A stretch of 1,875 nucleotides of DNA from Escherichia phage ECO95 1-6-1. The position numbers and the translations under genes are program-made. The notes beneath the pieces are model-generated. The model did no database searches and was not told the origin of the DNA. It was given only the letters and a program-made list of their open reading frames with translations. Of this stretch, positions 28 through 966 are shown piece after piece. The stretch is taken from the sequence record OR845638.1. The stretch is one strand, 5' to 3'. Each line of letters begins with the position of its first letter. Positions within the stretch are counted from its first letter, which is position 1.

Positions 28-372
28 ATGTCTATTCCCAACCATGTGTCGACAACGGAAGTTGTGCTATTGGAGCTAGAGATCTTACTCACTATTATTT
101 CGATTGGCGCGTGGGGAGGCTTTGTCAGCTATCTTTTACGCAAAGATAAGACAGAATATAATAGTTCTCATGAAAGTATTAAATATTGCTTAACGCAGAT
201 CGTGATTTCCTGCTTCACCAGTTTCTTGTTAAGCGCGATTGCAATCGAAAAAGAATGCAGTTTCAACATTGTTCTGTTGGCGGCAGGCTTAGGCGGTGTT
301 TTCGCGAGTCCGATCTTAAAAATTCTTGGGCGGCGGATTAAAAAAATTATCGAAGGAAATAATTCAGATTAA
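28..372 (+). CDS. Holin-like small membrane protein (114 aa): three predicted transmembrane helices and a basic C-terminal tail
   Basis: Complete ORF from ATG 28 to TAA 370-372; an in-frame TAA at 7-9 rules out an upstream start. GGAG at 17-20 lies 7 nt before the ATG. The translation shows three hydrophobic stretches (about residues 12-36, 54-73, 79-100) and a charged tail (GRRIKKIIEGNNSD), the usual class I holin layout. The holin assignment comes from topology, size and position next to a muramidase, not from a recognised family match. Confidence 0.6.
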   Translation: MSIPNHVSTTEVVLLELEILLTIISIGAWGGFVSYLLRKDKTEYNSSHESIKYCLTQIVISCFTSFLLSAIAIEKECSFNIVLLAAGLGGVFASPILKILGRRIKKIIEGNNSD

Positions 373-390
373 TTATCATTCGCAGTATCA

Positions 391-423
391 GGCTCATCCG
401 TGAGCCTTTTACGCGTCTTTTTT
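391..423 (+). terminator. Rho-independent terminator after the holin-like gene, possibly acting weakly on the convergent minus-strand operon too
   Basis: Perfect 6-bp stem GGCTCA (391-396) / TGAGCC (401-406) with loop TCCG, followed by TTTT (407-410) and a second T-run (418-423), starting 19 nt after the stop. On the minus strand the same hairpin is preceded by an A-run and not followed by a T-tract, so termination there would be weaker. Confidence 0.55.
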
Positions 424-432
424 CAGCCGGGT

Positions 433-966
433 CTAGGTCACTCTATTCTTGATCCAGCCATAAATAAATTGTTCGTTATTGTGGTTTTTCTCAGCAACGT
501 TTAAGTAGTACGTGCCCTGACTGCAATTGAGGGCTTTCACCAAAACGGCTTCCCCTTCCTGGCCTCGCCAGGCCAAATAATGTTCGAGAGCGGCAAGCGT
601 CCGCGGGCCAATATTGCCATCCACATGAATATCCGGGTAGCGTTTACCTTCGTGATTAAAGACGTTCAACCAGCGTTGCAGCCACGCGCTGGGGTGGTAA
701 GCGCCTATGTTGACTGCCGCATCGCACAGCTCGAAGGAGACTGGCCACGATAGCGTCGAGATGACGTCAAAGCCTGGTTTTATCCAGTAATCCTCTTCGA
801 GAATCGCATAGGCTTCAGCGTGGGTCAGATCCCGCATATCGCCAGCATAGCCATGCGCTCGCGCCGTGGCTTCGGTAATGCCCCAATGGGTGGCGCCGCC
901 TTTATCTTTAGGGTTAAATACGTAACCGCCTTCAAGCGCAATAATTCCATCTATAATTGGATTCAT
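433..966 (-). CDS. GH108-family peptidoglycan muramidase (N-acetylmuramidase) with C-terminal peptidoglycan-binding domain (PG_binding_3-like); TtsA-like 'secretion activator' type, no signal peptide
   Basis: Complete 177-aa ORF (ATG at 966-964 on the minus strand, TAG at 435-433). The N-terminus carries the GH108 hallmark motif ALEGGYVFNPKDKGGATHWGIT, with the likely catalytic Glu at residue 12. The C-terminal third (NIGPRTLAALEHYLAWRGQ...YYLNVAEKN...FIYGWIKNR) resembles the peptidoglycan-binding domain that accompanies GH108. A purine-rich RBS (GAAGGAAAGGGAAG) sits directly upstream. There is no hydrophobic N-terminal segment, so no Sec signal or SAR anchor. Confidence 0.88.
   Translation of the reverse strand: MNPIIDGIIALEGGYVFNPKDKGGATHWGITEATARAHGYAGDMRDLTHAEAYAILEEDYWIKPGFDVISTLSWPVSFELCDAAVNIGAYHPSAWLQRWLNVFNHEGKRYPDIHVDGNIGPRTLAALEHYLAWRGQEGEAVLVKALNCSQGTYYLNVAEKNHNNEQFIYGWIKNRVT

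Follow-up and report, generated by a model that had tools for sequence, protein, structure and literature searches.

The convergent holin and muramidase genes chiH and chiP of the Salmonella enterica chiA locus and their part in chitinase secretion

Our analysis places the window, that is, the whole 1875-base stretch of DNA under study, on the Salmonella enterica chromosome, where its genes chiH, chiP, chiR and chiA form the chiA locus just past dnaK-dnaJ. With high confidence, this locus is the chitinase type 10 secretion system (T10SS) of S. enterica, in which the holin ChiH and the muramidase ChiP export the chitinase ChiA; the genetics behind this assignment comes from S. Typhimurium. The name T10SS was reportedly given by Palmer et al. 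in 2021. The ChiH/ChiP system is already known from publications of 2023 and 2026 and, since its function was published there, the module adds no new biology. It is of interest because a phage lysis module has here been domesticated and serves living Salmonella cells at the gut mucosa to export a chitinase associated with virulence. Clean genetic evidence that secretion is non-lytic exists for few T10SSs, of which this is one. Moreover, a reading of the raw sequence alone had arrived at this experimentally established function.

Identity, published function and chromosomal setting of the locus

According to the ORF listing, the window contains four genes, the last of which is present as a 5' fragment only. 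The holin gene chiH (stm0015; positions 28-372, plus strand) encodes 114 amino acids and the muramidase gene chiP (stm0016; 433-966, minus strand) encodes 177 amino acids. Both ORFs lie exactly where the earlier note had placed them. Next to chiP lies chiR (stm0017; 983-1426, minus strand), which encodes a regulator of 147 amino acids, described as ToxR-like, with a putative C-terminal transmembrane (TM) anchor, and the window ends with the first 23 codons of the GH18 chitinase gene chiA (stm0018; 1807-1875, plus strand).

The chiP sequence is present in tens of thousands of S. enterica assemblies, and its context is constant. Read from upstream, this context consists of dnaK, dnaJ, a LysR-type gene (stm0014), the holin gene, the GH108 muramidase gene, the gene of the 147-aa regulator and that of the 699-aa GH18 chitinase; past chiA it continues with an ORF of 998 amino acids, an HTH_46 gene and a bcf-type chaperone-usher fimbrial operon. 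The exact-sequence clusters of ChiH and ChiP carry the names of S. Typhimurium entries in UniProt, Q8ZS12 (Q8ZS12_SALTY) and Q8ZS11 (Q8ZS11_SALTY), respectively. These matches and the gene context agree with the description of stm0014-stm0018 by Krone et al. (2023; PMC10109510). At the DNA level, the window matches a serovar Kentucky-associated contig with 100% identity and serovar Infantis with 99.1%. A megablast search of complete E. coli genomes gave no match to the window, and at that sensitivity the locus is absent there.

Within the phage collection, record OR850988.1 (positions 64-1938, reverse strand) alone matches the DNA of the window at 100%. This record of 3716 bp at 3.8x coverage is entitled 'UNVERIFIED_ORG: Salmonella phage S.Kent 1-2-1 clone NODE_116', and its assembly bears the label of a serovar Kentucky phage. 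The record consists of host chromosomal DNA of the chiA locus that was carried into a phage preparation and mislabelled, and represents no phage genome.

The function of the locus has been worked out in S. Typhimurium. Krone et al. (2023; PMC10109510) described stm0014 as LysR-type, stm0015 as a putative holin and stm0016 as a putative TtsA-like peptidoglycan hydrolase. They gave stm0017 the new name ChiR and described it as a ToxR-like activator that carries a TM segment at its C-terminus; stm0018 is chiA. Subsequently, stm0015 was renamed chiH and stm0016 was renamed chiP (Mahankali and Geiger, 2026; PMC13284979). Schematics of the gene organisation of the locus are also in print, according to the legends of Fig 2A (PMC10109510) and Fig 1 (PMC13284979). 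Clean deletion of either stm0015 or stm0016 abolished ChiA in the supernatant and left cellular ChiA unchanged (PMC10109510). Secretion of ChiA was accompanied by neither release of RecA nor a fall in CFU, and PI staining did not increase, with 2-5% positive cells (PMC10109510); TO-PRO-positive cells stayed below 1% (PMC13284979). Cells expressing the system made up 50-80% of the population (PMC10109510, PMC13284979), with about 70-80% in the later study (PMC13284979). Krone et al. designated this export of ChiA a type 10 secretion system (PMC10109510). The non-lytic nature of T10SS release is reportedly disputed for Yersinia and for some Serratia strains (PMC10847048; discussed in PMC13284979).

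The features by which a T10SS is recognized in sequence are all present in the locus, namely a holin, an adjacent signal-less hydrolase, cargo encoded in the locus and the absence of a functional prophage. The functional feature, a non-lytic release that depends on the holin and the hydrolase, is known from S. Typhimurium, whose proteins are identical (PMC10109510, PMC13284979). The earlier note had proposed just such a non-lytic, T10SS-like release by a holin/muramidase pair, and this is what the stm0015 and stm0016 deletions in S. Typhimurium showed (PMC10109510). In view of these deletions and of the ChiR data, its central hypothesis was therefore correct, and had already been demonstrated.

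An alternative explanation might be that the module is a prophage lysis cassette in decay; holin and endolysin would then lyse the cell, and ChiA would escape passively. Indeed, both proteins fall into families of phage lysis proteins (PF16083; PHROG holin and endolysin), and phage endolysin genes are the closest DNA matches outside Salmonella. For Yersinia entomophaga, T10SS-like cassettes are also reported to release lytically (PMC10847048). However, neither the window nor its flanks of 10 kb contained any phage structural, integrase, spanin, capsid, tail or terminase gene. The observation of the earlier note that spanin, capsid, tail and terminase genes were missing from the window is thus borne out and extends to the flanks. 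The 10-kb flanks of the chiH-chiP module contain housekeeping and fimbrial genes only. Their inspection for phage genes or cargo, which the earlier note had suggested, revealed no prophage lysis cassette, and the cargo turned out to be the GH18 chitinase ChiA. In the Salmonella systems, spanins are lacking as well (PMC13284979).

A further argument against a decaying lysis cassette is that the module occupies the same dnaJ-proximal site in three genera. Comparison loci reached through holin homologues showed the module and its convergent layout at this site in Klebsiella aerogenes and Siccibacter turicensis. In a Citrobacter koseri-type metagenome contig (L009, positions 6001-6862), dnaJ is followed by a holin orthologue with 68% identity and a regulator-sized gene of 149 amino acids, and the island lacks genes for a GH108 muramidase, a chitinase and a LysR-type protein. 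This Citrobacter koseri-type island is a degenerate version of the locus. The shared site in three genera therefore indicates that the module is old and has been vertically maintained, and the synteny with K. aerogenes and Siccibacter together with the Citrobacter remnant indicates that the island is old, chromosomal and able to decay. In other genera, orthologues located at this chromosomal site share 56-74% identity with chiH and 66-73% with chiP, and hence these two are real genes rather than chance ORFs. Finally, the RecA, CFU, PI and TO-PRO assays described above gave no sign of lysis, even though 50-80% of the cells expressed the system (PMC10109510, PMC13284979). Passive release from a prophage lysis cassette is therefore extremely improbable, and we retain the interpretation of the locus as a T10SS.

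ChiH, ChiP and the export of ChiA

ChiH matches Pfam family PF16083 (Phage_holin_3_3, the LydA holin) with E=1e-19 and 70.8 bits, compared with a gathering cut-off of 28.4 bits, and its residues 21-100 span profile positions 1-77 of 78. The protein also falls in PHROG holin families. Kyte-Doolittle hydropathy gives three hydrophobic segments, at approximately residues 12-37, 53-74 and 78-101, and these are followed by a basic C-terminal tail with RR and KK (GRRIKKIIEGNNSD). ChiH thus fits a LydA-type holin (holin superfamily III), as its profile match is nearly full, several TM segments are predicted and its C-terminal tail is charged. This agrees with the earlier description of its gene product as a three-helix protein with holin topology.

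ChiP likewise answers to what had been claimed for it, a signal-less GH108 muramidase. The two Pfam families that the earlier note had expected were both matched, PF05838 (GH108) with E=4e-24 and PF09374 (PG_binding_3) with E=3e-33, and the PHROGs category of ChiP is 'endolysin'. Its N-terminus is not hydrophobic. No hydrophobic segment was detected anywhere in the protein (the top 19-residue hydropathy is 0.94), nor was a signal peptide, and the catalytic Glu12 of the EGGY motif sits where a signal peptide would be. We also considered whether ChiP could be a SAR-endolysin, which would export itself. This was ruled out, as ChiP lacks a weakly hydrophobic N-terminal TM segment and has its catalytic Glu at residue 12.

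A reference of known crystal structure for ChiP is TtsA of S. Typhi. ChiP aligns with TtsA (PDB 6V40) over 173 residues with 56% identity and no gaps, and with Sen1395 (PDB 6V3Z) with 57.5% identity, again without gaps. Residues E12, D116, N164 and F167 of ChiP align with E14, D118, N166 and F169 of TtsA, and all four are invariant across the Salmonella, Klebsiella and Siccibacter orthologues. The assignment of ChiP to GH108 is given by its catalytic domain and by E12-G-G-Y, which is aligned to TtsA E14, and the degree of identity to TtsA points to muramidase activity on peptidoglycan.

The alignment also allows a prediction about the substrate of ChiP. In TtsA, the recognition of LD-cross-linked peptidoglycan has been linked to N166. 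Replacement of this residue by Asp, as in Sen1395, severely impaired both toxin translocation and polar peptidoglycan remodelling, and the D166N replacement in Sen1395 partly restored translocation (PMC6996933). Because ChiP has Asn164 at this specificity position, it may prefer LD-cross-linked peptidoglycan as TtsA does, which would amount to TtsA-like substrate recognition. Since Asn164 is also invariant in three genera, secretion of ChiA might, if ChiP acts like TtsA, depend on YcbB-edited peptidoglycan, as the secretion of typhoid toxin does.

How the three proteins would work together can be outlined as follows. Contact with mucin or a polarized epithelium induces the membrane-anchored ChiR, which is required for chiA, chiH and chiP (PMC10109510, PMC13284979). 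The dependence of ChiA secretion on ChiH and ChiP is genetic (PMC10109510). As a phage-type holin with three TM segments, ChiH would insert in the inner membrane and make a controlled lesion, and the signal-less ChiP would reach the periplasm through this lesion. At its N-terminus, the 699-aa GH18 chitinase ChiA shows neither a signal peptide nor a hydrophobic segment and, because it too lacks a signal peptide, it probably crosses the inner membrane by the same ChiH route. ChiP would cut the glycan strands locally, after which the 699-aa ChiA could pass the sacculus.

Alternatively, ChiH might export ChiP only, while ChiA crosses the inner membrane in some other way. The module would then serve solely to open the peptidoglycan, a role that has been put forward for TtsA in the case of typhoid toxin. 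In S. Typhi, the cargo has been exported to the periplasm before TtsA acts (PMC6996933), and a failure to export ChiP would equally explain why secretion of ChiA depends on the holin. Yet, the lack of an N-terminal signal peptide or hydrophobic segment in ChiA means that export by Sec or Tat is not predicted, and the holin is the sole candidate route encoded in the locus. A separate route for ChiA therefore seems to us unlikely, albeit far less so than passive release by lysis, and passage of both ChiP and ChiA through the ChiH lesion is the reading that we prefer.

ChiA might have company as a substrate. The 998-aa ORF outside the window (positions 3973-6969, minus strand, of the 20.5-kb Salmonella locus L001) lies 91 nt past chiA on the same strand. 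We found for it no Pfam match, no sequence match in PDB and no N-terminal hydrophobic signal. Its counterpart in K. aerogenes is an ORF of 1023 amino acids, and it is absent in Siccibacter. A search of the Salmonella literature under STM0019, a name that we derived from the position of the ORF, returned nothing. Given its position and its lack of a signal, the 998-aa ORF could encode a candidate second signal-less cargo of ChiH/ChiP.

Transcription units and candidate sites of ChiR action

As the earlier note had stated, chiH and chiP are convergent; their spacer measures 60 nt. Within the spacer lies a hairpin (positions 390-424, plus strand), GGCTCA-TCCG-TGAGCC, which on the plus strand is followed by TTTTACGCGTCTTTTTT, a T-run. 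Folding gave dG -19.3 kcal/mol with z -3.0 on the plus strand and dG -17.2 kcal/mol with z -3.0 on the minus strand, where the stem has no U-tract. A simple consensus terminator scan missed the hairpin. Because the counts of the consensus promoter and terminator scan were no better than those in shuffled sequence, we relied on folding instead. Judged from its fold, the hairpin probably acts as an intrinsic terminator of chiH.

On the other side of chiP, the stop of chiR and the start of chiP are separated by only 16 nt (positions 967-982, minus strand), including the purine-rich Shine-Dalgarno sequence AAGGAAAGGGAAG before the ATG. K. aerogenes has 15 nt at this junction, and Siccibacter has 10 nt. 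This suggests that chiR and chiP form one conserved operon, whereas chiH would be a separate convergent unit that ends at the hairpin terminator. A chiR-chiP operon would in turn imply positive feedback.

The convergent layout had led the earlier note to suggest that holin and muramidase are controlled independently. In line with this suggestion, chiH and chiP are separate transcription units that run on opposite strands and flank a hairpin, and a LysR-type gene is located upstream of chiH. However, both genes follow the same signal and the same regulator, since the promoter activity and protein levels of chiH as well as chiP were induced by mucin or by polarized cells and were abolished in a chiR mutant (PMC13284979). 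Furthermore, deletion of the LysR-type gene stm0014 affected neither the expression nor the secretion of ChiA (PMC10109510). Independent regulation is thus highly improbable, and the two separate units are better described as being under one regulator, ChiR (PMC13284979). Nor is the layout peculiar to one genome, as the convergent arrangement is also found in K. aerogenes and Siccibacter.

Although it has been called ToxR/CadC-like, ChiR had no Pfam match at E<=1, and its match to the OmpR-type effector domain of NCBIfam was weak (E=5.9e-5). A hydrophobic stretch near the C-terminus (residues 126-144) scored 1.59, just below the threshold of 1.6. Krone et al. placed ChiR among the ToxR-like regulators by means of BLAST and TMHMM (PMC10109510). 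Its DNA-binding domain would be a divergent N-terminal wHTH. Antisense to chiR, we noted an ORF of 30 amino acids (positions 1302-1394, plus strand) whose N-terminus resembles a signal sequence and which contains LITC, similar to a lipobox. The idea of an embedded o-spanin was rejected, since maturation would leave a peptide of 14 residues, and we regard this ORF as a chance ORF.

The divergent chiR-chiA control region (positions 1427-1806; 33% G+C) contains a palindromic 13-mer, TAAATGATATTTA, in two exact copies at 1568-1580 and 1590-1602, 22 bp apart. Two matches were reached in only two of 200 shuffles. K. aerogenes retains both copies at equal spacing, with identities of 10/13 and 12/13. 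The core of this 13-mer, TAAATGAT, recurs approximately 85 nt upstream of the chiH start, where the expected count is about 0.016. In the whole 20.5-kb Salmonella locus it occurs three times, in each case in a ChiR-dependent control region. The copy upstream of chiH is partly conserved in K. aerogenes and was not found in Siccibacter, and we treat it as a lead rather than a result. From their sequence and distribution, the TAAATGATATTTA pair and the TAAATGAT copy upstream of chiH could be candidate ChiR operators. If true, a ChiR operator in combination with the chiR-chiP operon would constitute a positive-feedback switch, which could explain bimodal expression.

Another conserved element is the block TTTGTGATT.GCTA within GTTTTGTGATTAGCTA, at about positions 1716-1730 and thus approximately 80 nt upstream of the chiA start. 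This block does not vary among Salmonella, K. aerogenes and Siccibacter, in contrast to the neighbouring intergenic DNA, which diverges. A function as promoter or activator element is probable, and we list the block as a candidate.

Asn164 of ChiP, the TAAATGATATTTA/TAAATGAT sites with the chiR-chiP operon, and the 998-aa ORF as cargo are details that have not previously been reported. Taken jointly, the proposals of a YcbB dependence through N164, of a ChiR operator at TAAATGATATTTA/TAAATGAT and of a second cargo in the 998-aa ORF are tentative, and we would consider it somewhat doubtful that all of them hold.

Comparison with known systems

The protein families of ChiH and ChiP are those of phage cassettes that combine a LydA-type holin with a GH108 endolysin. 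In such cassettes, the GH108 endolysin needs the holin because it has no signal peptide. In contrast to the phage cassettes, ChiH and ChiP have no prophage context and no spanins, and their genes are convergent instead of co-transcribed. They also differ in being under a host virulence regulator and in acting without lysis.

The ChiWXYZ system of Serratia marcescens has co-directional genes, and its ChiX is an L-Ala-D-Glu endopeptidase rather than a GH108 muramidase. [quoted passage not shown] The two systems also share bimodal expression and non-lytic release, the latter for Serratia in strain Db10 (PMC10109510, PMC13284979). According to the authors' summary, the Serratia system has spanins whereas the Salmonella system lacks them (PMC10109510, PMC13284979). 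The activators differ too. In Serratia, ChiR is LysR-type; in Salmonella, ChiR is ToxR-like, and the LysR homologue STM0014 is without effect (PMC10109510).

The TtsA system of S. Typhi resembles the Salmonella chitinase system in its hydrolase. Both systems employ a signal-less protein with GH108 and PG_binding_3 domains, and ChiP has the catalytic Glu of TtsA as well as its groove residues (D118, N166 and F169 in TtsA). Moreover, both secrete without lysis and without spanins (PMC13284979). They differ in cargo, which is toxins (typhoid toxin or ClyA) in the TtsA system and a chitinase in the ChiP system. They also differ in regulator, PhoP for TtsA versus ChiR for ChiP, and in the inducing niche, which is intravacuolar for TtsA and the mucosal surface for ChiP (PMC13284979).

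Finally, the ChiA T10SS of S. Typhimurium corresponds to the window in locus, gene order, orientation and flanks, and its holin and muramidase are identical in sequence. The window comes from another serovar background (Kentucky-associated, Infantis) and differs in nothing else of substance, so that the two represent the same system.
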